Assembly: GCA_018175075.1 (NCBI GenBank)
Contig: GCA_018175075.1_4100.2
DNA: 64,000 nucleotides
Direction: 5' to 3' (one strand)
Source: a phage
The notes below the pieces were generated by a model. That model made no database searches and was not told the origin of the DNA. It was given only the letters and a program-made list of their open reading frames with translations. The translations under genes were made by a program, and so were the position numbers. This document shows, piece by piece, positions 1-19,116 of the stretch (position 1 is its first letter; the number at the start of each line of letters is the position of its first letter).

Positions 1-1
1 G

Positions 2-118
2 GATAAGTATAGTTCAGATGTTATACCAGAGGTAATTAACGGATTACAACGAAGGGTTGATATACTTTCATATGATATAATCAATGGAAATATAACAATA
101 AGTATAAACCAAGTATAA
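2..118 (+). CDS. 3' end of an upstream gene (partial, hypothetical)
   Basis: Only open frame from the window edge; stop TAA at 116-118; no start in window. Confidence 0.3.
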   Translation, partial: DKYSSDVIPEVINGLQRRVDILSYDIINGNITISINQV

Positions 119-130
119 GGAGAATACTTC

Positions 131-652
131 ATGGAAGAAGGGAAAAAGAAAGACAAATTGGCAATACACTACACATCAGGTCACGATGTATGGTGTACCC
201 CAAAAGATTTCTTTAAGAAATTGGATGATGTGTGGCATTTTACATTAGATAGTGCATGTGTTAAAGAAACTGCGTTATGTTCTAAGTACTATACACCAGA
301 AACTAATGGTTTAGTACAAGATTGGGGTAATGAAATTGTATGGTGCAATTGTCCATATAGTGATATTAAATCATGGCTAATAAAATGCACAGATGCATAT
401 AACAAAGGGGCAACTGTAATGATTTTAGTACCATCTAGAACAGAAACTATAGCTTTTCAAGATTATGCATGTCCAGTATCTGATGCAATTTGCTTTATTA
501 AAGGAAGATTGAAATTCGTAGATCCACATAATCCACATAGAAAAACAACGGTAGCTCCGTTCCCGTCATGTCTATTAGTTATGGATAGAAATCTAACACA
601 AGCTAAAATAAACTTACTCAAATCTCTCGGAAACACGATGGTTAACATATGA
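131..652 (+). CDS. DNA N6-adenine methyltransferase (phage Dam-like small MTase)
   Basis: RBS AAGGAG upstream; motif WCNCPYSD resembles the (D/N)PPY catalytic motif of N6A MTases; ~173 aa as in small phage N6A MTases. Confidence 0.65.
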   Translation: MEEGKKKDKLAIHYTSGHDVWCTPKDFFKKLDDVWHFTLDSACVKETALCSKYYTPETNGLVQDWGNEIVWCNCPYSDIKSWLIKCTDAYNKGATVMILVPSRTETIAFQDYACPVSDAICFIKGRLKFVDPHNPHRKTTVAPFPSCLLVMDRNLTQAKINLLKSLGNTMVNI

Positions 653-1185
653 CGAAAGAAACATGTATATTATCATTTATGAGATGTAACCCAATACATC
701 ACGGACATGGTTTAGTGTTTGAAAAAGCTCAAGCACTACAAGAACAGTACAATGCTGATTTGAAAATATTCCTTAGTACCAGTACTGATAATATAAAAAA
801 CCCGCTTCCTCCTGAATTAAAGATGTATTACACTGAGGGTTTCTATCCTTCGGTTCAAGAAAACATTTATACTGAAGATAATCTTTTTGATATAATGCGT
901 GAATTAGATGGAAAATATTTAGATGTATTTTTTATATGTGGTTCAGACCGTATTGATTCTTTTCAGAAAACACTTGACAGTTACAATGGGAAGTTGTATA
1001 ATTTTTGTAATATAAAAGCAATTCAAGCAGGTATTGACCGCCAATCAAGTCAATATAGCTCAACACAAATGCGTAACTTCGCAAAAAATGAAGATTTTGA
1101 TAGTTTTCGTGAGTTTTTACCTGGAAATGACGAGGACTTAAAAATACAATTATTTGAAGACGTTATAAAATACATGAGGAAATAA
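649..1185 (+). CDS. HxGH-type nucleotidyltransferase, NMN adenylyltransferase-like
   Basis: N-terminal RCNPIHHGH (H-x-G-H motif) and C-terminal SSTQMR (ISSTxxR-like motif) as in the NadD/NMNAT family; overlaps previous stop. Confidence 0.55.
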   Translation: MTKETCILSFMRCNPIHHGHGLVFEKAQALQEQYNADLKIFLSTSTDNIKNPLPPELKMYYTEGFYPSVQENIYTEDNLFDIMRELDGKYLDVFFICGSDRIDSFQKTLDSYNGKLYNFCNIKAIQAGIDRQSSQYSSTQMRNFAKNEDFDSFREFLPGNDEDLKIQLFEDVIKYMRK

Positions 1186-1187
1186 TT

Positions 1188-1481
1188 ATGTCAGTACTGT
1201 TCAAAACCAATCCAGTACTTTGGGATCAAAATGAGCAATCAGGATTTCGTTCCATCCATGTTGAATACAAAGGTAATACTGTAGTTGCAATTATTGCTAA
1301 CAAAACTCTAGGAAACTGGACTGCACAGGTTGTTCCTATGGGATATTCTTACACATCTGATGAGGTTCAATTCCTGGCTGAACTATATCGTCAAGTGCCG
1401 TTTATCATTAATGTACTAGAAGGTAATGATACATTAACCCATGAAGATGTGATTAATTTTCTTGGAAACTTACATGTGTGA
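1188..1481 (+). CDS. hypothetical protein
   Basis: ORF in tight plus-strand gene array. Confidence 0.5.
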   Translation: MSVLFKTNPVLWDQNEQSGFRSIHVEYKGNTVVAIIANKTLGNWTAQVVPMGYSYTSDEVQFLAELYRQVPFIINVLEGNDTLTHEDVINFLGNLHV

Positions 1482-1761
1482 TGAAATAAATCTTACAGGA
1501 TATTTTTTACAAGAATCAATGATTAAATTTAGTGATAAATTTTCAGTACTGGATGGTATCGAAATGTGGCATGTCAAACCACTGTTCCACACTTTCAGTA
1601 AAGAGCACAAAATGTTATTGACTGAAGCCAGTAAATCAAATAACATATGTGAAATCAAAATTGGTGTAAATGTCTATAAAGGGATGGTTATCTTTTTTGA
1701 CAATAACAGCAACTACTTTTATATTGTTAAGGAGCATTACGTTGACAAATACAAATACTAA
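1462..1761 (+). CDS. hypothetical protein
   Basis: ORF; overlaps neighbours, boundaries uncertain. Confidence 0.45.
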   Translation: METYMCDEINLTGYFLQESMIKFSDKFSVLDGIEMWHVKPLFHTFSKEHKMLLTEASKSNNICEIKIGVNVYKGMVIFFDNNSNYFYIVKEHYVDKYKY

Positions 1762-2356
1762 TACATACTTCCGTTATCTTCGCTTAGGTCTTTCCCTACG
1801 TCCGATCCGTGGAAAGTGCGATTCACTCGCTGACCTTGACTATGCATATGCATTACATCATGAAGGTGTACAGTATGTATTGGGTGATTATGGTGAATTT
1901 GAAGAAACAAATGACAGTACTGGAATTAATGCTGGTGTAGAAAATCTTAACAACATTGCTAACAGTTCTCGCCATGACATTGTGTTACAGATTCAAAACT
2001 TTATTGAGCAGCACACAGGTAAACGTGTTTGGTGCTATGTCGGTACGGATGCACAAATGTCAATTTCATTCGGTAACGATGAAGGATATGTTGCACAGCT
2101 TATTATGGATTTTGAATCTGAAGAGAAGTTTTTAGAATTCAAAGAAAAGATTATTCAGTCACTTGTTGATATGGGTATCCCCGAAGATAAAATGCCAGAA
2201 GTTCAAAACATTGATGAATTTGTTTTGATTCCATCTGATGAGAAATATGATGCAATGTTTACTGCTCTTAATATTCCAGGAGTTATTGTGGAGTACTTTG
2301 ATGATGGTGATGATAGTATCTATATCGATCTAGATGACGATGACGACGATGAATAA
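1670..2356 (+). CDS. hypothetical protein with poly-Asp C-terminus
   Basis: ORF ending DLDDDDDDE; 92-nt overlap with previous ORF so true start is probably downstream; followed by terminator. Confidence 0.45.
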   Translation: MSIKGWLSFLTITATTFILLRSITLTNTNTNTYFRYLRLGLSLRPIRGKCDSLADLDYAYALHHEGVQYVLGDYGEFEETNDSTGINAGVENLNNIANSSRHDIVLQIQNFIEQHTGKRVWCYVGTDAQMSISFGNDEGYVAQLIMDFESEEKFLEFKEKIIQSLVDMGIPEDKMPEVQNIDEFVLIPSDEKYDAMFTALNIPGVIVEYFDDGDDSIYIDLDDDDDDE

Positions 2357-2362
2357 TGTACA

Positions 2363-2391
2363 TAGCCCGACATAAGTTCGGGCTATTTTTG
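2363..2391 (+). terminator. intrinsic terminator
   Basis: Hairpin AGCCCGA...TCGGGCT followed by T-run. Confidence 0.6.
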
Positions 2392-2402
2392 TAAGGGGAT
2401 AT

Positions 2403-2678
2403 ATGAATTATAAAGTTCTACAATATACATACAGTGTTTTGTTTGATTTACATCACAATGGAAGATATCTCAATACAATACGAGAAAACACATTCACTCA
2501 TACTATCTGGATTAATCACTTAATAATGATACGTGAATATTTTGTTAATAGTGAGATAATCATTCGTGGTAAAAAACAGAAGATAGAACAAGTTAATAGT
2601 TTTGGTGGTAAATTAGTACTATCATTTATAGATAGTAATACTAATGAAAGATATAGTATAGATTTGGTGGACATATGA
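2403..2678 (+). CDS. small paralog-family protein (member 1 of tandem array)
   Basis: N-terminal LQYTYSVLFDL motif shared with downstream neighbours. Confidence 0.5.
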   Translation: MNYKVLQYTYSVLFDLHHNGRYLNTIRENTFTHTIWINHLIMIREYFVNSEIIIRGKKQKIEQVNSFGGKLVLSFIDSNTNERYSIDLVDI

Positions 2679-2941
2679 ATTATAAAGATTTCCTACTAAC
2701 ATACAAGATTATTCGAGATTTAGCACACGACAATGATAGCCCTAGTCTAGAAGACACATGCACTGAAATGATTCATACGATTCGTGGTAAGATTAAAAAA
2801 AAATTCAGTACTGTTATTATTGGTGATGACCATGCAGAATTTTCTGATATAATCATTAGACGTGATGGTAAAGTTGAGGTTCAGTACTACACTGATTTTG
2901 GATTTACCAGTATTCCGTTGGAGATATTCCCTTGGGATTAA
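2675..2941 (+). CDS. small paralog-family protein (member 2)
   Basis: Shared N-terminal LLTYKIIRDL motif; start overlaps previous stop. Confidence 0.5.
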   Translation: MNYKDFLLTYKIIRDLAHDNDSPSLEDTCTEMIHTIRGKIKKKFSTVIIGDDHAEFSDIIIRRDGKVEVQYYTDFGFTSIPLEIFPWD

Positions 2942-3243
2942 ATTTAAATGATATACAATTCACTTATAAGATCCTATATGATTTGTATGATGTATACCTT
3001 GTTAGTAACAAAATAGGTTCACATAACCCATACAAAGAACAACCATTTATTGATTTATATATTGAGTACTTAGATTCAGTAGGTGAATATATAAAAAAGA
3101 ATTACAGTACTTTTATCGACGGAAATGATATATTCGAGTTCTCTGGAGTTAAATCATACAATGGGATTATCCATGTTGAATTTCTTGAAATAACCGATAG
3201 GGGATTTATCGAGATTAAAGTTGTGAAGTTGGTGAATTTATAA
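2932..3243 (+). CDS. small paralog-family protein (member 3)
   Basis: IQFTYKILYDLYD motif; probable TTG start with GGAG upstream. Confidence 0.5.
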   Translation: MGLNLNDIQFTYKILYDLYDVYLVSNKIGSHNPYKEQPFIDLYIEYLDSVGEYIKKNYSTFIDGNDIFEFSGVKSYNGIIHVEFLEITDRGFIEIKVVKLVNL

Positions 3244-3253
3244 GAGGTTACAT

Positions 3254-3565
3254 ATGTTATTAAATGATATACAATTCACATACAAATTTTTGTATATCCA
3301 ATACGCTACGGTTGATGCTGGAGAATATCTCTACGGTGAAATCTATCGTTCGGTATGGATAAAGTTTTTGGATGAATTACATGAATATTACCATGATTTG
3401 TGTATAGTTCGTGATAATAAAATATACAAATTCCGCGATATTGTTAGTCATAGCGGTAAGCTACGATTGGAATTAAGTACTGATAGTGATGTTGATTGGA
3501 TTGGTGTAAATTTACTGGAGTTGGAGAATGAAAAACAACTTAAAGGAAATACAAGTATTTTATAA
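3254..3565 (+). CDS. small paralog-family protein (member 4)
   Basis: IQFTYKFLY motif; RBS AAGAGG; ATG start. Confidence 0.55.
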   Translation: MLLNDIQFTYKFLYIQYATVDAGEYLYGEIYRSVWIKFLDELHEYYHDLCIVRDNKIYKFRDIVSHSGKLRLELSTDSDVDWIGVNLLELENEKQLKGNTSIL

Positions 3566-3812
3566 ATTCTTATACTTGTCATATGTAAAAGATGAGTACT
3601 ATGAAAGTGTGTATTATTTTTTATGGCAACATTACCGTACTATAGTAAGAGATTTATATATAGGAAAATCTATCATATCCAATGGTGAAAAATGTATATG
3701 TACTGATGTTGTTAGTTTTAATGGTTCTTTAACACTGTGTTTCAGATGCGATAATAATAGTGGGTCATTTTCATTAAACGTATATCAGTTAGAAGGAATA
3801 AATTTTGAATAA
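3528..3812 (+). CDS. small paralog-family protein (member 5)
   Basis: IQVFYKFLYLSY and YIGKS motifs. Confidence 0.5.
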   Translation: MKNNLKEIQVFYKFLYLSYVKDEYYESVYYFLWQHYRTIVRDLYIGKSIISNGEKCICTDVVSFNGSLTLCFRCDNNSGSFSLNVYQLEGINFE

Positions 3813-4005
3813 ATGTCCATATTGTAACAGTACTCAATTAGCTCGTTTCCGTTTAGATTCAGACTGGGCGACTGGTGCTGGTGATTTCTTCCCTATTAAT
3901 GATGATGCAGAATACACCGAAGAACAGCACAAAGATTTTGATAAATCATGGCGACCTGACATTGAGTGCATTTATTGCCTTAATTGTGAGCGTGTTCATG
4001 ACTAA
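3805..4005 (+). CDS. small zinc-ribbon protein
   Basis: CPYC ... CIYCLNC cysteine pairs. Confidence 0.5.
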   Translation: MNKCPYCNSTQLARFRLDSDWATGAGDFFPINDDAEYTEEQHKDFDKSWRPDIECIYCLNCERVHD

Positions 4006-4261
4006 AGCTGAACTAATAGTTCATACATATAAAATGATATCAAGTACTGAGTTATCATATAGTGCAGATAATCCAGTACTAGATTATTTTGTTGAATTAT
4101 TGAAAGAGCATTATATTGGTAAATCACTGATTCTTAATAATATTAATTTCACGGTAAAGGATGTAGCACCTGGAAAAAACGTACTAATAGTATGTGTTAC
4201 TTCATCTGATAACCCAGTATACCCAATATCAATAATTTTTGAGATATTAGGAGATTTATGA
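3998..4261 (+). CDS. small paralog-family protein (member 6)
   Basis: IVHTYKMI and YIGKSL motifs; start taken at internal ATG overlapping previous stop. Confidence 0.45.
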   Translation: MTKAELIVHTYKMISSTELSYSADNPVLDYFVELLKEHYIGKSLILNNINFTVKDVAPGKNVLIVCVTSSDNPVYPISIIFEILGDL

Positions 4262-4548
4262 ATATCATTTTAATGCAGAAAACATATGCTATATTGGTGA
4301 AAGATTATTCCATTACTTTCGATTCACAAGAAAGTGCTCTACAGAACCTATACAAAAACGTAACACAAGAATACAGAAATATGTTTTCTGACTTAGTAGT
4401 AGGAAGGTATTTCAGTACTAAAAAACGCAAAAAACTCAAAGTTGTAGATATTACTTTTTTCTCCAACGGGCATATAACAATTCATGGTGTAGAACATAAT
4501 TCACAAATATATCGTAACTACTCATCTAACGAGGTAACATTTTTATGA
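4258..4548 (+). CDS. small paralog-family protein (member 7)
   Basis: LMQKTYAILVKDY motif; ATGA overlap with previous gene. Confidence 0.5.
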   Translation: MNIILMQKTYAILVKDYSITFDSQESALQNLYKNVTQEYRNMFSDLVVGRYFSTKKRKKLKVVDITFFSNGHITIHGVEHNSQIYRNYSSNEVTFL

Positions 4549-4718
4549 GAACAGTATTTTTTATCTGGAGTCTTTTTTCATTGGCAGTACTGACAGTATG
4601 TGGGATTTGTTTACTTTCGACAATGAATGTCTGGTACATTAATTTACTATTCCCATTCGTAGGTGTAGGTTTAGGATTTACTTTACATAGTGTTTGTAAG
4701 GATTTTAATGGCAAATAA
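4545..4718 (+). CDS. small hydrophobic membrane peptide (57 aa)
   Basis: ORF below the track threshold, found by reading; ATGA overlap with upstream stop; two hydrophobic stretches. Confidence 0.35.
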   Translation: MRTVFFIWSLFSLAVLTVCGICLLSTMNVWYINLLFPFVGVGLGFTLHSVCKDFNGK

Positions 4719-4992
4719 ATCGAATGAAGTACTTGTTGCTGAAACAATGAAGATGGTTTATGCCATAACAACTAGTAATGATTTGTCTTACCCAATTAAG
4801 TCCAAGTTGAGGGATATAACTCTTCAGGTTATACAGCAGTACTACAAATCTAAACACAAAAGTATTATTAATGTTTATCGTGACTATGAAAGGATTCGCA
4901 TTTTGTTCTGGAACAAGAATCGAGTTCGTTCGGAATGTGATATAGAAAACTTTAAATTTGAGAATCTTTATTGTTACAAAGCGGGACAATAG
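4708..4992 (+). CDS. hypothetical protein
   Basis: ORF; start set at ATG 4708 (track uses GTG 4690). Confidence 0.45.
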   Translation: MANKSNEVLVAETMKMVYAITTSNDLSYPIKSKLRDITLQVIQQYYKSKHKSIINVYRDYERIRILFWNKNRVRSECDIENFKFENLYCYKAGQ

Positions 4993-5010
4993 CTCAAGTA
5001 GTGATATAAT
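4983..5010 (+). promoter_or_regulatory. sigma70-like early promoter (GGGACA -16- TGaTATAAT)
   Basis: -35-like GGGACA at 4983-4988; extended -10 TGATATAAT at 5002-5010. Confidence 0.5.
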
Positions 5011-5050
5011 ATTGGATGAGGAACAATAACTAACACAAGGAGTGTGTAAA

Positions 5051-5974
5051 GTGCCAAGTAAAAAGCCAGATTCTGAAGTATTCAGACTGGTTGATGAAAA
5101 ATTGAGTTCAATTGGTTCATCGGTAAAAATGGATAGAACAACATACACTACCATATCAAACAAATCAACTTTTTTCTGTGATGAATGTGGGTTTAGTAAA
5201 AATATCATAGTTAGGAATGTGTACAAAAATGGAATATTTTGTCACTGTCCCACATTTAAAACTTTATATAATAAATTGGGTGAAATTAATTCAAAATTAA
5301 AATTAGATATTTCCACATTCACAACTACAAAAAACAAATCTAGATTTTATTGTGACGATTGTGCGTTTGAAAGATATATGACGGTGCATGATGTTAAGTC
5401 TAGAGGTTCATATTGTAAATGTCATTCATCATATTGTATGCCGTTAGATATCGACGAAGCATATAACACTATTATGAATAAAATAAAAGATTACTCAAAT
5501 ACAATATATATGGATAAATCTACATACCGTGGTACACAATATAAGGTTAGATTTTATTGTACAGCGTGTAATTTTGACAAATATATTAATTATAGTAGAG
5601 TTAAATGTGGATCTCTTAACTGCAATTGTATCAGACCAATCCCAGAAGAAAGTAAATTATATATTTTAGGAATATATGAACAAAATATTTTAATAAAATA
5701 TAAAGTTGGTATTTCTACAAAGATTGATAAATCAAGACTAATTAGTATTAGGTCAAAAACTAATTTTATAGTAGAGGAATTATATTATTTTACTGGAAAT
5801 ACCGAAGTTATTAAAAGTGTAGAATATAATATTTTAAATCTGCTTAAAAATAGTAGTAAATTGCCAAAGGATTATTTTGGTGATGGGTATACTGAAACAT
5901 TTGATTTACAAGACATAAATCTTGTTATTGATTATGTATGTAAATGTTTACTCGAAAATAAATTAAAAATATGA
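5051..5974 (+). CDS. putative nuclease: three zinc-ribbon repeats plus C-terminal GIY-YIG-like domain
   Basis: Three repeats of F-x-C-D-x-C...C-x-C; C-terminal GIYEQNILIKYKVGIS resembles a GIY-YIG/T5orf172-type motif; probable GTG start after AAGGAG. Confidence 0.45.
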   Translation: MPSKKPDSEVFRLVDEKLSSIGSSVKMDRTTYTTISNKSTFFCDECGFSKNIIVRNVYKNGIFCHCPTFKTLYNKLGEINSKLKLDISTFTTTKNKSRFYCDDCAFERYMTVHDVKSRGSYCKCHSSYCMPLDIDEAYNTIMNKIKDYSNTIYMDKSTYRGTQYKVRFYCTACNFDKYINYSRVKCGSLNCNCIRPIPEESKLYILGIYEQNILIKYKVGISTKIDKSRLISIRSKTNFIVEELYYFTGNTEVIKSVEYNILNLLKNSSKLPKDYFGDGYTETFDLQDINLVIDYVCKCLLENKLKI

Positions 5975-5999
5975 AAATCATAAACACAAGGAATGTGAA

Positions 6000-6728
6000 A
6001 TGATAGATAATATAAAATTTGCAACAGAAATGGCGAATCAACTCAATATTGCAAATTTCCAAATGTTAACATCTGTTATGGCTGAACATGCTGCGGCATA
6101 TTCATCTAGCGGTATACAATGTGGACAAGCTAACATGTTAGCTGATGTTTATAGTGAAGTTCAAAGCAAACAATATAGCGTAAAGACATACAAGGATAAG
6201 TTCGTAAGTCTTTATATGAATGAAGATATTTCAGAAGACCGCAAATTCACCGATTTTATTATTGAACGCCGTATTAGTGGGGTTTCAGACCCAAATGCAG
6301 CAAGTGATATTGTATTCGATGAGGTATTAAAAGATATATATGAAAATGAATTGAAAAGTAAGAATCATTACAATGTACGTGAAACTAACACAGTGCTAGT
6401 TGGATATGATGAAGACGACCAATATTTCTATTTTCGTATAACAGAAGTTCCATTTGAATATAAAAAACCATCCACTACATCGGTAAAAGAATTCACTGAG
6501 AAGAGTAAAAACTTCAAGAAACACGAAGGAAACCGTTGTAGTATTAATGGTTATGATGAAAATGGTGTTCATGTTTATGAATGGGTTTCACCTAATTGCC
6601 AAACATACACTCGTTGCTTGAAAAAACGTTATAATTTAGAAGAGCATGAATCATTCTATTTTAAAGTTAAGAAGCAAGGTTACACTCGCCCCGCCGATTC
6701 TGAATTGATGGGTATGATATATTTCTAA
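6000..6728 (+). CDS. hypothetical protein
   Basis: ORF with ATG start. Confidence 0.5.
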   Translation: MIDNIKFATEMANQLNIANFQMLTSVMAEHAAAYSSSGIQCGQANMLADVYSEVQSKQYSVKTYKDKFVSLYMNEDISEDRKFTDFIIERRISGVSDPNAASDIVFDEVLKDIYENELKSKNHYNVRETNTVLVGYDEDDQYFYFRITEVPFEYKKPSTTSVKEFTEKSKNFKKHEGNRCSINGYDENGVHVYEWVSPNCQTYTRCLKKRYNLEEHESFYFKVKKQGYTRPADSELMGMIYF

Positions 6729-6738
6729 GGAAACTTCT

Positions 6739-7020
6739 ATGGATTTTTATCTACACACATGGACATACGAACAATATATTACATTATATCTTGAAATTAT
6801 TAACACAGAACCTAGGTGTGGTTGTTGGTTCGCAGATATCATAAAAGAGTATGCTGACGAGTTCGAGTTTGTGTATCTTGGGTCTGATATATTTGTAAAA
6901 AGTGTAGGTAAAACCGGACGAATCACTGATATAGATTACGACACTGTTAGTGTGAATTTCTATGTTGATTTTCCTGATGCTGGCGTTGATGGTGTATATT
7001 GTCTTTATGAAATAATTTAA
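6739..7020 (+). CDS. hypothetical protein
   Basis: ORF followed by terminator. Confidence 0.5.
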   Translation: MDFYLHTWTYEQYITLYLEIINTEPRCGCWFADIIKEYADEFEFVYLGSDIFVKSVGKTGRITDIDYDTVSVNFYVDFPDAGVDGVYCLYEII

Positions 7021-7027
7021 ATTCTTA

Positions 7028-7051
7028 GGCCAGCGTTTGCTGGTCTTTTTT
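7028..7051 (+). terminator. intrinsic terminator
   Basis: Hairpin CCAGC...GCTGG plus T-run. Confidence 0.6.
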
Positions 7052-7064
7052 CGCAGGTACAAAG

Positions 7065-7367
7065 ATGTTCAGTATAGATTTAATTAACAGTACTATCAAA
7101 ATGTTGGCTGATTTGGTGAGACAATCAAATGGAACTTTATATTCTGCAATGTATAAAATGTTTGACCGATATATCAAGGATTGTAACATATCATTATATG
7201 GACTTGCTGTTGATATAGACGATTACTATGGAATTAATACTTCATATAAAACAGGAATTTTAATTGGTATTAATATAAAGATGGGGTATTTCCCTTATTA
7301 CTGTATAGGATTACCAGATAATACTTTGGTAGAATATCCAGCCAGTACTATTAAATTAAGAGGATAA
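7065..7367 (+). CDS. hypothetical protein
   Basis: ORF. Confidence 0.5.
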   Translation: MFSIDLINSTIKMLADLVRQSNGTLYSAMYKMFDRYIKDCNISLYGLAVDIDDYYGINTSYKTGILIGINIKMGYFPYYCIGLPDNTLVEYPASTIKLRG

Positions 7368-7374
7368 AACTAAA

Positions 7375-7953
7375 ATGAATGTATTAGAATTAAGTACTAA
7401 GCTGATTAGTATGCGTAATGAGTGGTACGATTGGTTTTATAATGGTACTGATATGGATTTTTCAAAATATCCATTTATGGAATCAGGATGTGATGCAAGA
7501 TACCGCTGGTTGAGCAAAGATTGTTCTGGTTTACATATTCTAGTTGACGATAGTGGTCAGGGAATTATAAAAGATTTACTTCAAGTTGAACAACTCGTCC
7601 ATGATAATTGGTGTGATAACGATCCATACCTTGGAAATATGATTTATGTAAGTGAAGATGATTGCATATTCGTTATCCAGCGTCATGGTAATTCTATGTT
7701 TTATGTAGCAGACAGCAGTACTCCAGAAGGTGCAGCAGCCGATGGTCTTATGCCTAAGATTGATATATTGGAATTTGGATTACCTGAGCACTTCCAGATT
7801 AGTACTTTATACGATATTCCACCACTTGAGTTCTTTGAAGAATTTAAATTGTACTACAATGATCTTCAAAAATTGAGTACTGATCGACGCATTGAAATAA
7901 CTGTTAAGTACATGGACGGAACGAAATTAACTGATACGGGGATAGAATTTTGA
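7375..7953 (+). CDS. hypothetical protein
   Basis: ORF. Confidence 0.5.
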   Translation: MNVLELSTKLISMRNEWYDWFYNGTDMDFSKYPFMESGCDARYRWLSKDCSGLHILVDDSGQGIIKDLLQVEQLVHDNWCDNDPYLGNMIYVSEDDCIFVIQRHGNSMFYVADSSTPEGAAADGLMPKIDILEFGLPEHFQISTLYDIPPLEFFEEFKLYYNDLQKLSTDRRIEITVKYMDGTKLTDTGIEF

Positions 7954-8639
7954 TTAAAGATTTAGATAGAATTTTATATGTACTAAGGGGTGTAATTACA
8001 TTACATCCACAAATCAATCGAATTGAAAGTACATTTCAGTTGGAGTCAAGAGAAACTCCATATTCACATATATCAAATGTAGTTGGTTCACTCAGTACTG
8101 AAGACTCGCCTTACGATATTTGTGTATGTGAAGTACAACCAAGTTCGGATCTTGGATTTGCTATTTTTGATAAAAATCAAAATCTCATTAGTATGTTTCA
8201 GTGCAATAATCCTTTTTGGAAAACATGCCTGTATCCAGAGTGGGCGATGCTTGATCCAACCAAGAGTACCATTAAAGTTTATGACTCTAAAAATGATGAA
8301 GTCGTTATTGATTTGGATGAGTCAATGTCAGAGGAAGAACACTTTCAGCTAATGATGATGCGTGCTATGCCTGAGTACAATGCAATGATTAACACTGTGC
8401 AATACATTAAGGATACTATGCCATCATTGCGTACACATGAGTTTTGTCATCCTGTATTGTATGAACATTTGGATTTAGATTTCAGTACTATTAAATTTAA
8501 AGATAGTGTTATTAGATATATCCAAGAGGTTACTAAATTTGATTTTATTAGTACTATGAACAATAATCCAAAAACTAATTTTAGGCATCAGTACAATGAA
8601 TCTTTGTCCGGTGGACGCGATACAAGTTGGTGGAAATAA
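7950..8639 (+). CDS. hypothetical protein
   Basis: ORF; start overlaps previous stop. Confidence 0.5.
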   Translation: MIKDLDRILYVLRGVITLHPQINRIESTFQLESRETPYSHISNVVGSLSTEDSPYDICVCEVQPSSDLGFAIFDKNQNLISMFQCNNPFWKTCLYPEWAMLDPTKSTIKVYDSKNDEVVIDLDESMSEEEHFQLMMMRAMPEYNAMINTVQYIKDTMPSLRTHEFCHPVLYEHLDLDFSTIKFKDSVIRYIQEVTKFDFISTMNNNPKTNFRHQYNESLSGGRDTSWWK

Positions 8640-8640
8640 T

Positions 8641-8904
8641 ATGAATATTAAAGATAGATTACAATTACTATACACTATTGAACAGGCTGCTTTTGAACTT
8701 GTTAATAAAATCTCCGAAGAACTTCCCAAAGGAACTATAGTTCGTGTAATTGAGAGGGATTATGAATCTGGAGAAATTGAAGAACTAGTACTAACCGTGA
8801 ATAAAGTAACATACTATGAATCTGAGTTGGCTATCCAATGTATATCGGAAGATGGTAAAATATACTATTATGACACTGGTGTAGATATAGAGGTAATAAA
8901 ATGA
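8641..8904 (+). CDS. hypothetical protein
   Basis: ORF; start moved to ATG 8641 (GGTGGA upstream) to avoid overlap. Confidence 0.45.
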   Translation: MNIKDRLQLLYTIEQAAFELVNKISEELPKGTIVRVIERDYESGEIEELVLTVNKVTYYESELAIQCISEDGKIYYYDTGVDIEVIK

Positions 8905-10043
8905 CCCTTTTACAAATATATGAAGATTTAATGCACTTATGTAATACAAACGATGCGTTTTTTTATGTGGATCATAAAAGTCCTGCTGGTGGTACGTATC
9001 GTGTATTCAGTTATCGTCTAGCATCATACACTGATTTCATGCAACCAAATGCGTTGGAAACCCGTGGCTCTATGTGGGAAATTGATGAAGAAGGTGACAT
9101 GATACGTTGTGCAGCACGTACAATGAAAAAGTTCTTCAATGCTTACGAGAATCCTGCTACAATGTTCCCTGCTAACACCACATGCGATGACATTGCGGTA
9201 GTGATGCCTAAGTTGGATGGTTCGATTATCAGTACTTATCGTGATAATGATGGTGAGATTCGTTGTAAATCACATACTGCATTGTATTCTGACCATGCGA
9301 TTAACAGTACTCGACTTATTAACGAGAACCAGAATTTGTACCAGTACATCGACGAAGCGGAACGTTTAGGTTACACAGTTAATATGGAGTATACAAGCCC
9401 AGAGTACCGAATTGTATTACCATATCAGGTAGAACAACTGTTTGTACTGAACGTTCGACATCGTGTGAGTGGTGAGTTGCTATGTGGTAAAGCACTACGT
9501 GATAAGTTTCCATGTCTTGCACAGTACAGTACTAATATGACTGGAAAAGATATTCATCACACTTTTCCGGTACGAAATACCTTCCGTGAAAGCGTGGAGG
9601 AAGTTCATAAAATGCTTGATATTGAGGGTTTTGTGTGCATCCTAAATAATGGGACAATGTGTAAAATAAAGACTGACTGGTACAGTTCATTACATCTTAC
9701 AAAAGATAGTATTATTATTGATTCTCATTTATATGAAGCAGTATTAAATGGTTCAAGTGATGATTTAAAACAATTGTTCAGTACTGATGAATATGCTATG
9801 CAAAAGATATTAAGAATGGAACAATTGGTATTTTCGTGCTATAATGCATTACAAGATGAAGTAGAAAGCTTCGTCAAGGAACACAAGCACTTGGAGCGAA
9901 AGGAATTCGCAATGAAGGTTCAGGAGTGTTTAACTAATGAACTGAATCGTCAGGGCTTGGCCTTTGCAATGTATAACAATAAGAAAGTTGATTACAAAGA
10001 GACTCTTATAAAATACATGAAAATTGTACTAAAGGATTTTTAG
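8901..10043 (+). CDS. rnlA: RNA ligase 1 (T4 gp63-like)
   Basis: N-terminal region closely resembles T4 Rnl1 as I recall it (FFY...YR.FSY..ASY.D...P.ALE.RG.M.E); length 380 aa; RBS GAGGT. Confidence 0.85.
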   Translation: MTLLQIYEDLMHLCNTNDAFFYVDHKSPAGGTYRVFSYRLASYTDFMQPNALETRGSMWEIDEEGDMIRCAARTMKKFFNAYENPATMFPANTTCDDIAVVMPKLDGSIISTYRDNDGEIRCKSHTALYSDHAINSTRLINENQNLYQYIDEAERLGYTVNMEYTSPEYRIVLPYQVEQLFVLNVRHRVSGELLCGKALRDKFPCLAQYSTNMTGKDIHHTFPVRNTFRESVEEVHKMLDIEGFVCILNNGTMCKIKTDWYSSLHLTKDSIIIDSHLYEAVLNGSSDDLKQLFSTDEYAMQKILRMEQLVFSCYNALQDEVESFVKEHKHLERKEFAMKVQECLTNELNRQGLAFAMYNNKKVDYKETLIKYMKIVLKDF

Positions 10044-10073
10044 TACTATCTAGCCTAAGCACAAGGAGAAGTG

Positions 10074-10328
10074 ATGGCTAAACCTAAGTATAAAAATGAC
10101 GGTTCCCTTTCTCCGACTGAGTTCAGGAAAATACAAGAAGAAATCGATGAATTACAGCACAAACGCTCAATGAAAGGTGTGAAGATAAGTAAGAAACGAA
10201 TCGAGAATACCTTCGGATGTAGTAGTACTGAATACAAGAAGAAAAGGAAACCAAAAGGTGTTAAGCCGAGAATACATGATGTAACTCGCTATACATCGAA
10301 ACGTGAAAATAAATTTGATCCACTATAA
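10074..10328 (+). CDS. small lysine-rich basic protein
   Basis: RBS AAGGAG 5 nt upstream of ATG. Confidence 0.5.
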   Translation: MAKPKYKNDGSLSPTEFRKIQEEIDELQHKRSMKGVKISKKRIENTFGCSSTEYKKKRKPKGVKPRIHDVTRYTSKRENKFDPL

Positions 10329-10337
10329 GGAGTTCAT

Positions 10338-10568
10338 ATGAAAGTTGAAGTTCAGCATAGTATTGTTCAGGATATGTCAGTAGTTAAATTTCTTTCTCTG
10401 AAAGATTACTTCAGATGTATCAAGTTCCTAGAAGAATCTCAATTACAGTGGACCCCATTAAAGTACAGTTCATCCAATGATACTGCTAGTATTCGTTGTG
10501 ATGAATCTGTACTTGTGAAAATCTCCAAGCGATTTGGAGTAGGAAAAGTTAATGAGCACAGTAAGTGA
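10338..10568 (+). CDS. hypothetical protein
   Basis: ORF. Confidence 0.45.
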   Translation: MKVEVQHSIVQDMSVVKFLSLKDYFRCIKFLEESQLQWTPLKYSSSNDTASIRCDESVLVKISKRFGVGKVNEHSK

Positions 10569-10806
10569 CCTAAAATACTACAACAAAACTGCGGATACGT
10601 TTATTACTCATTTATATGAAGAATTTAGTCGTATCCGTAAGGAATATACAGGTAAATGTATTTTATATAGTTCTTATCATAGTGGTGGAATTGAAAGTGC
10701 TTACATTACTAAAGTGAAGTTTTCTGATGACTATCAATTACTCTTTGAATTAGATGATTGTTTCGTTATTGAAGCTTGTTTGATAGTGGATGTTCTAGAT
10801 AATTGA
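10552..10806 (+). CDS. small paralog-family protein (dispersed member)
   Basis: EYTGKCILY motif resembling the YIGK-x-V family motif. Confidence 0.45.
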   Translation: MSTVSDLKYYNKTADTFITHLYEEFSRIRKEYTGKCILYSSYHSGGIESAYITKVKFSDDYQLLFELDDCFVIEACLIVDVLDN

Positions 10807-10812
10807 GGACAT

Positions 10813-11127
10813 ATGAATAAAGAACTTGTATTTGAGAGGATCGAAAAGTTAAAGTACATTGAAAAGGAACTAATAGAATCTGTCGAATCAATGGTCGAAG
10901 ATTACGTTTTCGATTTTAAGAAAACATTGATTGGATGTAAAGTTAAATGCTGGGATCATACAATCAGAGAATGGTTCAGTACTATAATTCTTGATGTTAA
11001 AGTATCGCGTACTGCTATTGGTAATTTAGTAAATGGTGAATGCTTTGTATACACTGAATACAATAACGGAACAAGAAACCTTTCAAGAGGATGGCACAAA
11101 CTCGAAGATGTAGAATTCATTGAGTAA
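10813..11127 (+). CDS. small paralog-family protein (dispersed member)
   Basis: TLIGCKVKCW motif. Confidence 0.45.
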   Translation: MNKELVFERIEKLKYIEKELIESVESMVEDYVFDFKKTLIGCKVKCWDHTIREWFSTIILDVKVSRTAIGNLVNGECFVYTEYNNGTRNLSRGWHKLEDVEFIE

Positions 11128-11139
11128 CAAGGAGTAATA

Positions 11140-12072
11140 ATGCCAACTATTACACTAACAGTTGGATTACCTGGGTGTGGTAAAACCACATGGGCAGTTC
11201 AAGAAATTAAAAATGCCAAATCCAAGACTATCAACATCAACCGTGATGATATTCGTGAATCTATGGCTGGGTCACATGATGCTTACAAATTCAACGATGC
11301 TAATGAGCAGTACGTAACTAATTTACAGTTCAGTGCAGCAAATTCAGCAGCAGAGAATGGTTGGAACATCATCATATCCGATACAAACCTTAAACAACAT
11401 TTCCGTAATCTCTGGAAAGTATGGGCTAAAGATAATGGTTATGATTACAAAGAAAAGAACTTCTATGATGATTTTGTACCTAATGAAGACCGTGGTGCAG
11501 ATGTTCATGAATTCTTTAAGATTAAAGAGTTCGTAAAACTTTGTAAGAAATATAACCTCCAGCGTGAGCGTTCAGTACAAGATGATATCATTGACACAAT
11601 GGCAGATACGTACTATTATAGTAAGGCATTACACATTGGTTACTATGGTAATTCACGCGAAGCTGCTATCATCGTTGATATCGATGGAACTCTTGCTCAT
11701 AAATGGGGTCGTAATCCTTACGATGAAAGTACTGTTCTTCAGGATACACCTGATGAAGAAGTTATTTTGTCTATTATCGCTGAAGCAGTTTTTCATAAAC
11801 GCAAGATTATCGTCATGAGTGGGCGTACTGAAGGGTGTCGTACTGACACCGAACAGTGGCTTAAGAATTGGGGTGTTCCTTACGATGCATTGTTTATGCG
11901 AGGCATCGATGATAAACGTCCTGATGATGTTGTTAAATTCGACCTGTACATGAAAAATGTGGTTAATCAATACGATGTTAAAAAGGTATATGATGACCGC
12001 GAAGCCGTGACGTTCATGTGGCGTAAGCTACTTGGTTTGAAGGTATTTCAAGTAGATTTTGGACGTTTTTGA
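11140..12072 (+). CDS. pseT: polynucleotide 5'-kinase / 3'-phosphatase
   Basis: P-loop GLPGCGKTT and overall resemblance to T4 Pnk (INRDD, VDIDGTLA phosphatase motif); RBS AAGGAG. Confidence 0.85.
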   Translation: MPTITLTVGLPGCGKTTWAVQEIKNAKSKTININRDDIRESMAGSHDAYKFNDANEQYVTNLQFSAANSAAENGWNIIISDTNLKQHFRNLWKVWAKDNGYDYKEKNFYDDFVPNEDRGADVHEFFKIKEFVKLCKKYNLQRERSVQDDIIDTMADTYYYSKALHIGYYGNSREAAIIVDIDGTLAHKWGRNPYDESTVLQDTPDEEVILSIIAEAVFHKRKIIVMSGRTEGCRTDTEQWLKNWGVPYDALFMRGIDDKRPDDVVKFDLYMKNVVNQYDVKKVYDDREAVTFMWRKLLGLKVFQVDFGRF

Positions 12073-12112
12073 TAAAATAAATAGTGCATATATGACAAAA
12101 AGGACTTTCTAT

Positions 12113-12799
12113 ATGCACTATTATATTATATATAAAATAACCAATTTAATTAATAATAAAATTTATATTGGTGCTCATATGACTGATGACATAAATGATG
12201 AATATATGGGTTCAGGTGTTCTGATAAAGAAATCCATTAAGAAATATGGAATTGAAAAATTCAATAAAGAAATACTTTATATTTTTGATAATAAAGAAGA
12301 AATGTATAACAAAGAAAGAGAAATTGTTAATGAACAATTTATACAAAGAAGCGACACATATAACATCAAACGTGGTGGAGAAGGTGGCTACGGCGTAATT
12401 GATAAAGAAAATTGGAAAAAACAAATATCAACGGCACAAAAGAAGCGATATTCTTCAGGTGTTGTGGCTTGGAATAAAGGTAAATCTGTATCAGAAGAAA
12501 CACGTATTCAAATGAGTCAGAGGATGAAAGGTCGTTTCCCTGGAGATAAAAATCCTATGCATGGTAAACCCTGTACATATAAAATGACAGATGAAGAAAA
12601 AACATCATGGTCCAACAATATAAAGAAATCAAACACTGGTAAAAAGAGAACTGATGTTCAAAAACAAAAATATTCTTCGGTCGCGTCAAAACGAATTTGG
12701 TTAGTTCATAAAAGTGGTAAAGTTACTAATACACAAAATGAAAATGACCCACGTTTGAATGATCCAGATTGGCAACGTGGTCAAAAGTGGAGAGAATGA
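12113..12799 (+). CDS. GIY-YIG homing endonuclease (Seg-like)
   Basis: YIIYKITN...KIYIGAH GIY-YIG motif; C-terminal NUMOD3-like repeats; start at ATG 12113 with AAAGGA upstream. Confidence 0.8.
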   Translation: MHYYIIYKITNLINNKIYIGAHMTDDINDEYMGSGVLIKKSIKKYGIEKFNKEILYIFDNKEEMYNKEREIVNEQFIQRSDTYNIKRGGEGGYGVIDKENWKKQISTAQKKRYSSGVVAWNKGKSVSEETRIQMSQRMKGRFPGDKNPMHGKPCTYKMTDEEKTSWSNNIKKSNTGKKRTDVQKQKYSSVASKRIWLVHKSGKVTNTQNENDPRLNDPDWQRGQKWRE

Positions 12800-12823
12800 A
12801 TATTTTTATGGATTATAATTTTT

Positions 12824-12850
12824 GAGGGATCATATGTTGGTCCCTTTTTC
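12824..12850 (+). terminator. intrinsic terminator
   Basis: Hairpin GGGATCA...TGGTCCC plus T-run. Confidence 0.6.
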
Positions 12851-12867
12851 TTTTAAGGAATATTATA

Positions 12868-13044
12868 ATGAATGTAAAAACACAGATGTTATTACAAAAA
12901 GAATACTTAGAAAATATAGAAATGTTCTATAGATTGTCTTTATACGAAAAAAAACATAAAAAATATAGCTTTTCTAAACATCTAAACACAAGTACTGATG
13001 ATTATCTATTTTCATCAATGTTTTATGTGAGAGGTTTATTATAA
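12868..13044 (+). CDS. small hypothetical protein (58 aa)
   Basis: ORF below track threshold; AAGGAA RBS 8 nt upstream; stop overlaps next ATG (TAATG). Confidence 0.4.
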   Translation: MNVKTQMLLQKEYLENIEMFYRLSLYEKKHKKYSFSKHLNTSTDDYLFSSMFYVRGLL

Positions 13045-13304
13045 TGGATAAATTTCACACAGATATAACACAGATAGGTAATCTTATCAATAGTCTAATT
13101 ACTGATTTAGAAGAAAAGTACTTAGGTCGAAATGTATACGTAGAAATGTATGAAACATATGGTGTTATTGATATGATTTATTACAGTGCATTGAAGTGTG
13201 AAATACGTTTAACAGTATGTTTGTTTGAAAAAAATACATTCAACAGAAGTACTGCAATTCGCCAAGTTGGAGTTGATGATATAGAATTATACGAGGAACA
13301 ATGA
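13044..13304 (+). CDS. small paralog-family protein (dispersed member)
   Basis: EEKYLGRNVYVEMY motif. Confidence 0.5.
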   Translation: MDKFHTDITQIGNLINSLITDLEEKYLGRNVYVEMYETYGVIDMIYYSALKCEIRLTVCLFEKNTFNRSTAIRQVGVDDIELYEEQ

Positions 13305-13555
13305 TGTTTGAGCAGGACTTAGAGATATTCAAAAGTCATATTGATTACTTGACTATATTAGAAAATGATTTAACTACAAAGTACAAAGGCATTCGTGTTC
13401 TGTGCTGGTATGATGATTGGGATTATAAACGTGAACTCACGATTGATCGAATTTATTTCAGTGACGGTGTACTAAATGTACATGGTGTAAATGATTTTGG
13501 TCATTCATATACATATTCTAATAATGCTAAATTTAAAAGGATCTACAATGAATGA
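13301..13555 (+). CDS. small paralog-family protein (dispersed member)
   Basis: TTKYKGIRVLCWYD motif. Confidence 0.5.
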   Translation: MMFEQDLEIFKSHIDYLTILENDLTTKYKGIRVLCWYDDWDYKRELTIDRIYFSDGVLNVHGVNDFGHSYTYSNNAKFKRIYNE

Positions 13556-13850
13556 ATATTATCATAATTTATTCGATTACATAAAACTAATAGATGATCT
13601 TTCTTTTGAATTTCTCAGTACTGAAAAAGTTCTTGAACCTCTCTATTATGATTGTATTAGTTCACTATGTTTAGATGAAAAAGAGATATTAGCAAACAAC
13701 TTACCATCCACGGTCTGTACAATCAATGGTTCCAAGGCATTAGTGTGCGAGGTTAATTTTCATAAATCACTTAATACAATTGTTTACAAGTTCGATAACA
13801 CTTGGGTAAATCATGTAACCAGTAATATTAAATCTGTGAGATTTTTATGA
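13548..13850 (+). CDS. hypothetical protein
   Basis: ORF; start at ATG 13548 after AAAAGGA. Confidence 0.45.
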   Translation: MNEYYHNLFDYIKLIDDLSFEFLSTEKVLEPLYYDCISSLCLDEKEILANNLPSTVCTINGSKALVCEVNFHKSLNTIVYKFDNTWVNHVTSNIKSVRFL

Positions 13851-14143
13851 ATATAAAAAAATTATTTGAACAAGTAAATTTATTGTACTGGTGTTCAGAC
13901 GGGTCAGATAAAGAAAATAGTGAAGCTTTTTTAGAATTATTCAGAAATGAAATACACATAATTAGAAGATACTTAATTGATAATAAAACTGAAGTAAAAG
14001 TTAGATACCATAATGGTACTTTAAAGAATGGTATAATTATTGGATTGATAGTTACACGAATGTCTAGTAATATTAAAGTTGCAGTAAGATTAATGACTGA
14101 TGATGGTGTCTACACAATAGAAGCTAGTGAGATTATATATTAA
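13847..14143 (+). CDS. small hypothetical protein
   Basis: ORF, overlapping start/stop. Confidence 0.5.
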   Translation: MNIKKLFEQVNLLYWCSDGSDKENSEAFLELFRNEIHIIRRYLIDNKTEVKVRYHNGTLKNGIIIGLIVTRMSSNIKVAVRLMTDDGVYTIEASEIIY

Positions 14144-14449
14144 ATGGATATACAAACATTCAATAAACTTAAGTACTATGATAATGGTTTTGCATTAATA
14201 ATTAACGAACTTGATGGAATACCATACGAATATCATAATCAATTAATGAAGATAATAAAATGTATATGTGAAGAATTAAAAAGTATATTTAAAAATGAAT
14301 ATGTTTATGATTTAGGTAATAGTAGCAAAAAACTATACATAAAGAAATTCTGGGGAACGCATTGCGGTTTGATGGTCGATTTAGGTTTAAGTTTAGACGA
14401 TAATTCTGAATCATGTTCATTATATATAGATGAAATGCGAATATCATGA
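14144..14449 (+). CDS. hypothetical protein
   Basis: ORF. Confidence 0.5.
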   Translation: MDIQTFNKLKYYDNGFALIINELDGIPYEYHNQLMKIIKCICEELKSIFKNEYVYDLGNSSKKLYIKKFWGTHCGLMVDLGLSLDDNSESCSLYIDEMRIS

Positions 14450-14475
14450 GACGTATCAGAATTCGGTGATATAAT
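14447..14475 (+). promoter_or_regulatory. sigma70-like promoter with extended -10 (TGaTATAAT)
   Basis: TGATATAAT at 14467-14475; weak -35 TGAGAC. Confidence 0.4.
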
Positions 14476-14506
14476 TTGATTACATCACCAATAGGGAGAA
14501 GTTGAA

Positions 14507-14833
14507 GTGAATGGTTCGTTTTTAACAATATTAGAAAAGACAACCGAGATGCTTTCTAGCTCGTTAATGCAGATTTTCAGTACTAATAATTTATACAATA
14601 CCCAGGTGTTAGATTCAATTAATAATAACTATGTGGTAAGTATATCTGATGAAATATGTCCATTTAACGCGTATTCAATTTATAGTGTAGAAGAGTTTCG
14701 TATATCCGAGATTCGATGTGGTTTTGGTGCTTGGTTAGTTCTAAATGAACGTTCAGGGTTGTCTTTATACATCGAAGAAGTTAGTAAATTTATATACAAA
14801 GGAGTAGAATATGTTAACCCCAATTATTCTTAG
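14507..14833 (+). CDS. hypothetical protein
   Basis: GTG start after AGGGAGAA RBS. Confidence 0.5.
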   Translation: MNGSFLTILEKTTEMLSSSLMQIFSTNNLYNTQVLDSINNNYVVSISDEICPFNAYSIYSVEEFRISEIRCGFGAWLVLNERSGLSLYIEEVSKFIYKGVEYVNPNYS

Positions 14834-15769: not shown

Positions 15770-15771
15770 TT

Positions 15772-16238: not shown

Positions 16239-16240
16239 TA

Positions 16241-16984: not shown

Positions 16985-16989
16985 TAATT

Positions 16990-19105: not shown

Positions 19106-19116
19106 AGGAATATACA

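Follow-up and report, generated by a model that had tools for sequence, protein, structure and literature searches.

Lineage-specific gene expansions are already recognised in jumbo phages: Bacillus phage G carries a zinc ribbon in roughly 35 copies (PMC7824862), phage CBB holds 22 paralogous open reading frames (ORFs) (PMC5259590), and a tandem-duplication model of jumbo genome growth has been cited for phAPEC6 (PMC7247149). The array described here, seven small ORFs that share sequence motifs, occupies positions 2403-4548 of a 64,000-nucleotide stretch of phage DNA (GenBank assembly GCA_018175075.1, contig GCA_018175075.1_4100.2), called the window in what follows. Phenomena of this kind, in which a small domain is multiplied by duplication within one lineage, are familiar; the predicted fold of the array proteins, a helical hairpin and a beta-meander devoid of metal ligands, is nevertheless unlike the earlier examples. 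The window itself is placed by its sequence in an Asteriusvirus jumbo coliphage of the 121Q/PBECO4/phAPEC6 group: nucleotide identity to 121Q, PBECO4, phAPEC6 and vB_Ec-M-J, each of ∼350 kb, is 88-96%, and none of them exceeds ∼96%.

T4-like phages possess hyperplastic (or plastic) regions filled with small ORFans, among them host-takeover proteins. The array resembles these regions in its short, dense and often overlapping genes, all on one strand and lodged between genes of nucleotide metabolism and RNA repair, in its high turnover between close relatives and in its non-structural products. Unlike the T4 regions, however, it consists of one family amplified repeatedly rather than a mixture of unrelated ORFans, and its proteins display no sequence or significant structural similarity to those of T4. 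A further parallel is offered by the ‘accordion’ amplifications of poxviruses and the multigene families (MGF) of African swine fever virus, in which tandem paralogs, copy-number change, chimeras and fast divergence are generally read as the mark of host-interaction genes. This is an analogy only, as no relation to the array exists in sequence, host or mechanism.

For approximately 83% of the genes in jumbo phages of the 121Q type, no function is known (PMC7247149), and the array is a case in point. In PHROGs its members fall into groups 21004, 32291, 35943, 33961 and 28826, and the probable dispersed relatives discussed below into groups 37322, 29519, 33398, 29135, 31355, 38615 and 32812. All are labelled ‘unknown function’, the only kind of group matched. 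Each ORF of the window corresponds to one such group end to end (E = 1e-42 to 1e-75), but PHROGs splits the family into about a dozen groups and their unification into a family or superfamily is absent there. Likewise, the family is undescribed in papers on phAPEC6, fEgEco12, UE-S1 and CBB and in a jumbo-phage overview. Collapsing roughly a dozen ‘hypothetical’ groups into one family and a probable superfamily would reduce the number of unknowns and supply a confident structural model.

The tandem family

The array is almost certainly a genuine family of tandem paralogs. Its seven ORFs encode proteins of 87-103 residues, all on the + strand, and overlap or abut one another. Member 1 (2403-2678, 91 residues, phrog_32291) is 99% identical to gp422 of 121Q and 32-56% identical to the orthologs that fill the same slot in vB_Ec-M-J, ph0011, A4 and JNE01. 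Member 2 (2675-2941, 88 residues, phrog_35943) starts at an ATGA that overlaps the stop codon of member 1. Member 3 (2932-3243, 103 residues, phrog_21004) begins with TTG, at a position confirmed by the ATG-initiated relatives P0047 and P0050, and is followed by member 4 (3254-3565, 103 residues, phrog_21004), the protein chosen for structure modelling. The long start of member 5 (3528-3812, 94 residues) carries the N-terminal motif of the family. Member 6 (3998-4261, 87 residues, phrog_33961) is divergent, its start being M42 of a mechanically called ORF at 3875-4261, and member 7 (4258-4548, 96 residues, phrog_28826) is the most divergent of all. The earlier note on this DNA had described seven consecutive ORFs; seven homologous ORFs do exist, but members 5 and 6 are separated by a CxxC zinc-ribbon gene (3805-4005, + strand, 66 residues, phrog_22354) that lies inside the array without belonging to the family. 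This gene is conserved far better than its surroundings, with 83% identity in JNE01/Turkey5 and 70% in the Klebsiella phage KP13-7, and at its 3' end it runs into the beginning of member 6, thereby pinning the first 8 codons of the latter. It also bears a motif-level similarity to a DnaJ/anti-TRAP-like zinc-finger ORF at 17269-17496.

Homology within the array is supported by several independent comparisons. All-against-all BLASTP, in which minus-strand ORFs served as decoys, yields a chain of matches (2932 to 3254, E = 1e-6; 3254 to 3528, 3e-6; 2403 to 3528, 3e-5; 2675 to 2932, 5e-5), and the first decoy emerges at E = 0.025. The next-best matches of a hidden Markov model (HMM) built from members 1-5 are 4258 (2e-4) and 3998 (2e-3), decoys being reached at about E = 1. 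When profiles of ortholog groups are aligned with hhalign, members 1-5 attain probabilities of 64-99.8% among themselves, and member 6 attains 70% with member 4 and 50% with member 5. Orthologs bring in the remaining pair: P0019, an ortholog of member 5, matches member 7 at 1e-5, the JNE01/Turkey5 counterparts of member 7 score 1e-5, orthologs of member 6 match member 5 at 4-8e-4 and an array gene of phage A4 matches member 6 at 3e-4. Cross-matches within PHROGs agree with the profile-profile results, only phrog_21004 and phrog_32291 being connected, and weakly. Members 1-5 are thus robustly related at the level of sequence, and members 6 and 7, though divergent, are picked up by profile searches.

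The similarity from which the earlier note had deduced a family is therefore statistically significant, and the N-terminal motif is real. Each of the seven ORFs carries the N-terminal signature [IL]-Q-x-T-Y-[KR]-x-L, with Y10 invariant among them. In the numbering of member 4 the full signature reads [IL]6-Q7-x-T9-Y10-[KR]11-x-L13 ... L34-W35 ... R43 ... G48 ... D62-[VI]-x-S65-[YF]-x-G68-x-[LI]70. Across a weighted alignment of 44 family sequences the N-terminal positions are conserved at 77% (Q7), 83% (T9), 93% (Y10), 67% (K/R11) and 70% (L13), and W35, G48, D62, S65 and G68 (96%) are conserved as well. A downstream Y-I-G-K block, also proposed as a common feature, is literal in three of the seven ORFs but degenerate in the other four. 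At the nucleotide level, a 26-nt direct repeat occurs at 2944-2969, 3260-3285 and 3540-3565 (92% and 77% identity), at the beginnings of members 3, 4 and 5, and a 54-nt repeat is found at paralog 5' ends at 2397 and 2669. These 5'-end repeats encode the conserved peptide L-N-D-I-Q-F-T-Y-K. Codon bias is enough to bring their identity within expectation (p about 0.09 by a rough estimate), and the repeats are therefore not taken for a DNA or RNA element in their own right. Peptide conservation combined with codon bias probably explains the 26-nt repeat, to which gene conversion may have contributed.

The array ORFs are annotated as coding sequences in 121Q, vB_Ec-M-J, A4, JNE01, ph0011, UE-S1 and phAPEC6. 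Pairwise Nei-Gojobori estimates against relatives give ratios of non-synonymous to synonymous substitution (dN/dS) of 0.1-0.7 at unsaturated dS, for instance 0.11 for 2932 against ph0011 and 0.17 for 2675 against vB_Ec-M-J, and conserved neighbours score 0.03-0.2. Judged by these values, the seven ORFs are real genes under purifying selection and conserved as coding in relatives; such ratios point to expressed, selected proteins on which the pressure is somewhat relaxed or diversifying. Two existing annotations can be corrected. In 121Q, gp426 (4577-4813) has been called from an internal start, leaving a 78-residue product that lacks the N-terminal motif and is a truncated member 5. In phAPEC6 (3066-3762), member 5 and the zinc-ribbon gene are unannotated and member 6 has been extended to 120 residues.

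A structural model of member 4 was obtained with AlphaFold2 from a 35-sequence family alignment, with a predicted local distance difference test score (pLDDT) of 84 and a predicted template modelling score (pTM) of 0.73. It places helices at residues 3-20 and 28-45, followed by strands at 49-53, 56-66, 69-75 and 82-86. The array proteins are thus predicted to consist of an N-terminal helical hairpin, which contains I/L-Q-x-T-Y-K-x-L, packed on a C-terminal beta-meander marked by D-V-x-S-x-x-G-x-L. A Foldseek search of viral models in BFVD returns only family members at E <1e-3, among them the orthologs of member 5 in 121Q and of member 7 in slurp01, small proteins of phage RaK2 being next. The BFVD models of orthologs superpose on member 4 with template modelling scores (TM) of 0.62-0.80 for member 5 and 0.66-0.70 for member 7; the slurp01 ortholog of member 7 reaches 0.66 at 14% identity.

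Both positive and negative net charges occur among these soluble array proteins (net +4 to -6, isoelectric point 4.7-9.4), which are devoid of any catalytic motif or known domain. Searches of Pfam and NCBIfam return no meaningful domain or functional match for the family, a PDB sequence search nothing below E = 0.08 and PADLOC a single sub-threshold chance match (REase_II, 16.8 bits, member 2); no curated family of defence or anti-defence proteins is thus matched in these libraries, which include no Acr-type collection. The array proteins are also non-virion proteins: mass spectrometry identified 62 proteins in the phAPEC6 particle (PMC7247149), and the orthologs gp384c-gp389c are not among them. 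A DNA-mimic anti-restriction type, as in Ocr, ArdA and Arn, was considered; the net charge of the array proteins, only +4 to -6, does not conform to it. Markedly acidic proteins are confined to two of the dispersed ORFs, 6739 (-12) and 8596 (-10).

Turnover and distribution of the array

Of the Asteriusvirus genomes compared, six have seven copies, and JNE01/Turkey5 have five. The identity of orthologs drops to 30-40% where enzymes hold 75-90%, and in comparison with JNE01/Turkey5 the family has a median identity of 30-33% vs 59-62% for other genes (p about 0.01). Individual slots have different histories. At slot 6, vB_Ec-M-J and ph0011 keep only the first 8 residues, those overlapped by the zinc-ribbon gene, beyond which identity falls to ∼20%. 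Member 5 presents a mosaic picture, being 100% identical to its counterpart in vB_Ec-M-J, 96% in A4 and 59% in ph0011, and phage A4 accommodates three 2403-like copies in slots 1-3. A protein of Salmonella phage SD-6_S16 (P0029, 96 residues) matches member 2 over its first ∼65 residues (98%) and member 3 at its C-terminus; by its sequence this chimera is the product expected of unequal crossover between neighbouring paralogs. The modes of change seen in these comparisons are duplication, the replacement of alleles and unequal crossover.

In Escherichia phage EJP2 the same slot, between the cytidylyltransferase and RNA ligase genes (4800-13500), is occupied by an array of ∼175-205-residue proteins, some of them paralogous (E = 2e-38). 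The EJP2 proteins, of ∼180 residues, were considered as double-domain relatives, but they have no significant match to the family and are unrelated to it.

Distribution is very narrow. A word-indexed search of 5.8 billion proteins gave 38 matches, each an ortholog (53-99% identity) of one or other of the seven array ORFs and all from Asteriusvirus-type contigs, and a further search gave 26 matches, again exclusively Asteriusvirus-type orthologs. When 1.84 billion cluster representatives were searched exhaustively with a profile, 19 matched at E <=1e-3, one of them a PKD-repeat artefact. This protein, P0048 (3051 residues), is the only match outside phages. It is a PKD/FG-GAP repeat protein with many beta-hairpins, every one of which weakly resembles profile positions 52-83, and its score is therefore attributed to cumulative repeat noise. 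As the searches return almost only Asteriusvirus-type orthologs, the family is essentially restricted to this genus.

The nearest structural neighbours outside Asteriusvirus are small proteins of the Alcyoneusvirus phages RaK2 and KP13-7, which infect Klebsiella, for example H6X4R2 and H6X4J9 (TM 0.56-0.63). The array HMM matches KP13-7 ORFs at 14677-14979, 11562-11819 and 6360-6629 (E = 8e-4 to 0.1) before it reaches any decoy, and the region concerned is syntenic with the array region. In contrast to the array, these proteins display only ∼15% sequence identity and no seven-gene tandem arrangement exists at the syntenic position. RaK2-like Klebsiella phages thus probably carry faint relatives of the family.

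Probable dispersed relatives in the accessory region

The earlier note had also reported related motifs in small ORFs elsewhere in the window. Ortholog-group profiles of 32 small ORFs were compared all against all with hhalign, using as null 992 non-self reversed-profile scores with a maximum of 23.6. Twenty-three real pairs exceed this maximum and, once a zinc-ribbon pair is set aside, they form one connected component of 15 ORFs, namely the seven array genes and 6739, 8596/8641, 10813, 13044, 13301, 15440, 15987 and 16990; 56 pairs lie above the 99th percentile of the null where about 5 are expected. Six of the ORFs named in the earlier note (10813, 13044, 13301, 15440, 15987 and 16990) are therefore above the reversed-profile null, with a link of moderate strength, but 10552 is unsupported: 10552-10806 scores 16-18, below the null, and the array HMM matches it at E = 0.03-0.09 in iterated searches only. 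Two members had not been named, 6739 and 8641, and the family extends beyond the flagged interval of 2403-4548. The array probably belongs to a superfamily of at least 15 small ORFs scattered across the first 18 kb of the window. The probable common pattern is one helix, a strand with h-x-G-x-x-V and then a beta-meander.

The hub of the dispersed cluster is 15987-16238 (83 residues, + strand). Linked to it, all on the + strand and all probable members, are 15440-15769 (109 residues; 80.8%, score 33.3), 13301-13555 (84 residues; 28.1), 10813-11127 (104 residues; 27.8), 13044-13304 (86 residues; 58.9%, score 27.7, and BLASTP 0.01) and 6739-7020 (93 residues; 26.8). The 10813 profile also scores 26.1 with 15440 and 24.9 with 13301. 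A further probable member, 8641-8904 (87 residues), scores 25.0 over 78 columns with 13301; its start is taken from the annotation of relatives, the mechanical ORF beginning at 8596, and the HMM of the dispersed cluster (A5) matches it at E = 0.003. The last, also probable, is 16990-17232 (80 residues), which lies within the 15-ORF component and whose Turkey5 ortholog is matched by the array HMM at E = 0.003. The C-terminus of 16990-17232 differs from that of the 89-residue orthologs in most relatives (...YDQNVYVEIEYDGKLSQLSTEDLTFL), in a frameshift-like manner near codon 70, and the short form recurs in one metagenomic protein, P0059. Another ORF, 35421-35690, is borderline (score 23.1 vs the null maximum of 23.6).

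Whether the array and the dispersed cluster share ancestry depends on a few modest bridges, 4258-13301 (score 27.6, through member 7) and 3998-15987 (24.0), and on structure. The model of 15987 (pLDDT 84; pTM of this and the member 4 model, 0.69-0.73) contains one long helix at residues 2-27 and strands at 30-33, 42-51, 54-62 and 68-75. Searched against BFVD, this model has as its best hit the 121Q counterpart of array member 5 (TM 0.59/0.62, 77 of 78 residues aligned), at a weak E-value of 0.013. In addition, 25 non-trivial real proteins precede the first of 2,600 decoys (at 0.25) in a search with the array HMM, and orthologs of 15987 and 16990 from Turkey5/JNE01 are among them at E = 0.003-0.005. 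The homology is considered fairly likely on these grounds.

The best-surviving alternative holds that the tandem array alone is a family and that the dispersed ORFs of 6739-16990 are unrelated alpha+beta proteins, alike by convergence, by composition and by the limited repertoire of folds available at 80-100 residues. The dispersed type has a single N-terminal helix where the array type has two, and the same structural match that aligns almost the whole 15987 model with an array member does so at an E-value of only 0.013. In a pooled array-against-dispersed hhalign comparison the probability is 6.9% and the score, 19.6, does not reach the highest null value, albeit in the expected register. 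The array HMM recovers 15987, 13044 and 16990 of the window itself only at E = 1.1-1.5, and array members come up in the A5 HMM search only where decoys do, at E of about 0.007-0.1; these results tell against a common superfamily. The single component of profile pairs beating all 992 reversed nulls, the excess above the 99th percentile and the ortholog matches ahead of every decoy count against chance resemblance, and the array-only explanation is regarded as unlikely, though it retains real weight.

Possible functions and genomic setting

The first 20 kb of the window, in which all long ORFs are on the + strand as they are throughout, constitute an accessory region. It contains genes for a Dam methyltransferase, a cytidylyltransferase-like protein, RNA ligase 1 (Rnl1), a polynucleotide kinase/phosphatase (Pnk), a Ser/Thr phosphatase, a PTH2-type peptidyl-tRNA hydrolase and a DNA ligase, and dozens of ORFs of 60-130 residues are scattered between these enzymes. 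A role of Rnl1/Pnk in countering Prr has been noted (PMC7247149). An intrinsic terminator, with a 9-bp GC-rich stem and a T-run, lies on the + strand at 2362-2386, directly upstream of the array, and is followed by the ribosome-binding site AAGGGGA and the ATG at 2403. The succession of overlapping or abutting genes right after a strong terminator, with a good ribosome-binding site, suggests read-through transcription and translational coupling.

The account that best accommodates these observations combines a lineage-specific family, a probable superfamily and a reading of its members as diversified binders; taken as a whole it is tentative, falling slightly short of what could be called likely. 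Its best-established part is that tandem duplication founded a multigene family of small soluble proteins (about 85-105 residues). Recombination between co-circulating phages keeps reshuffling this family: copies are born and lost, alleles are exchanged at fixed slots and neighbouring genes undergo unequal crossover. The products would most likely act stoichiometrically, as non-enzymatic binders or inhibitors. A conserved scaffold would display variable surfaces, each paralog being tuned to a different host or host-defence target, and conflict with variable hosts would cause the high turnover. Transcription would probably start from host-type promoters of the accessory region and read through the terminator at 2362-2386, the overlapping genes probably being translationally coupled. 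Early or middle expression by the host polymerase is consistent with the Sigma-70-like promoters in the surrounding sequence and with the neighbouring genes for nucleotide metabolism and RNA repair. That the family members bind host or defence components is, as a separate proposition, possible but rather doubtful.

Several observations count against this account. We infer a host-takeover or anti-defence function, as the earlier note did, from the pattern alone. Wherever dN/dS is measurable it is below 1, the frameshift-like 16990 gene excepted, and the terminator just upstream of the array is strong. Moreover, when the family is compared with the other small ORFs of the region, it does not evolve significantly faster (p = 0.06-0.4; JNE01/Turkey5, p = 0.06-0.07). 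As a consequence the fast-turnover pattern belongs to the whole accessory region and, since nearby small ORFs evolve comparably fast, arms-race selection specific to the family is not demonstrated. The picture of an expanded, rapidly diverging family drawn in the earlier note is accurate with regard to tandem copies, low ortholog identity and allele replacement, but not as a distinction from the small ORFs around it.

A bolder version treats the array and its dispersed relatives as one modular arsenal built on a new small fold, in which the conserved N-terminal helix (I/L-Q-x-T-Y-K) would attach every member to one shared hub or join members into oligomers and the fast-changing beta-domains would each neutralise a different defence or takeover target in E. 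coli. This is improbable; if true, a 350-kb phage would devote roughly 4 kb, ∼15 genes or more, to a single family of anti-defence binders, exchanged between phages as cassettes. Phages of the 121Q type are under development for therapy against pathogenic E. coli, and if the array encodes host-specific inhibitors it would help to explain differences in host range. If it does not, it is a routine instance of amplified genes in the plastic portion of a large phage's genome. In either case 2403-4548 is a defined 2.1-kb cassette, separable member by member.

A different function is conceivable for the same fold. Instead of inhibiting defence, the proteins might be small beta-barrels of the Sm, Tudor, KOW or CarD-RID kind that bind nucleic acid or RNA polymerase and adjust transcription or RNA metabolism in the phage or its host. 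The succession of a helix and a beta-meander is reminiscent of Sm-like and Tudor-like small barrels, a resemblance to be taken as a lead only. The 15987 model weakly matches BFVD entries for T4-type MotB and for a ‘transcriptional regulator’ (TM about 0.45), and RNA ligase, Pnk and PTH2 are neighbours. However, no significant match, by structure or by profile, links them to any small beta-barrel domain of solved structure (Sm/Hfq, Tudor/KOW/CarD-RID). The Sm/Hfq candidate, raised by a helix followed by a G-x-x-V pattern, obtained a probability of 0.3% against E. coli Hfq. Most members are acidic (net -4 to -12), which is unusual for nucleic-acid binders, and 15 diverging paralogs fit poorly with a single conserved regulatory target. 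A regulatory role of this type seems to have little likelihood.

It is very improbable that the proteins serve the physiology of the phage itself, for example as adaptors or chaperones for ClpP-like proteases or the replication machinery, with a diversity that tracks internal partners: two ClpP-like proteins are encoded nearby (22213-22908 and 26266-26874), purifying selection is maintained and copy number stays at seven in most genomes, but the internal partners are 85-100% identical while the family falls to 30-40%, EJP2 keeps ClpP, the ligases and Pnk yet has the family wholly replaced, and near-identical phages swap alleles at fixed slots.

Other features of the window were recorded alongside the array. 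Strong + strand intrinsic terminators at 2362-2386, 7027-7046 and 12824-12846 appear to split the accessory region into units, and a terminator scan detects 13 terminator-like sites vs 5.8 expected. Sigma-70-like promoters with an extended -10 element (TGATATAAT) are located at 4983-5010, 14446-14475 and about 22165-22195, where they precede 5042, 14507 and a ClpP-like gene, respectively; a perfect TTGACA-17-TATAAT lies inside a gene, at 974-1002. An Rfam search of positions 1-20000 produced no match.

Two genes of this region are probably insertions. The 310-residue product of 5042-5974 contains three internal Cys-rich repeats and is annotated ‘endonuclease’ in vB_Ec-M-J (98% identity). It has no Pfam match, and the gene is absent from the other relatives compared, ph0011 harbouring a different gene for 494 residues at the site; it is probably a mobile insertion. 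The ORF at 12059-12799 (246 residues), next to the Pnk gene, shows by eye a GIY-YIG-like N-terminal motif (YIIYKITN...KIYIGAH), with no Pfam match at E = 1e-3 and no counterpart among the relatives compared, and is probably a homing endonuclease insertion. Further along, the adjacent ORFs 23812-24018 and 24029-24367 both match one ∼170-residue protein of A4, JNE01 and Turkey5, which suggests that the gene is split in the window or that its sequence there contains an error. Paralogs are not confined to the accessory region: besides the two ClpP-like genes, the window holds two ∼900-residue proteins with 27% identity (E = 4e-62) together with a short relative (39805-42501, 42513-43100 and 43027-45846), three tandem proteins of ∼170-190 residues (45914-47514) and a pair of ∼200 residues (57550 being the end of the first, which starts at 56903, and 58286-58870 the second).

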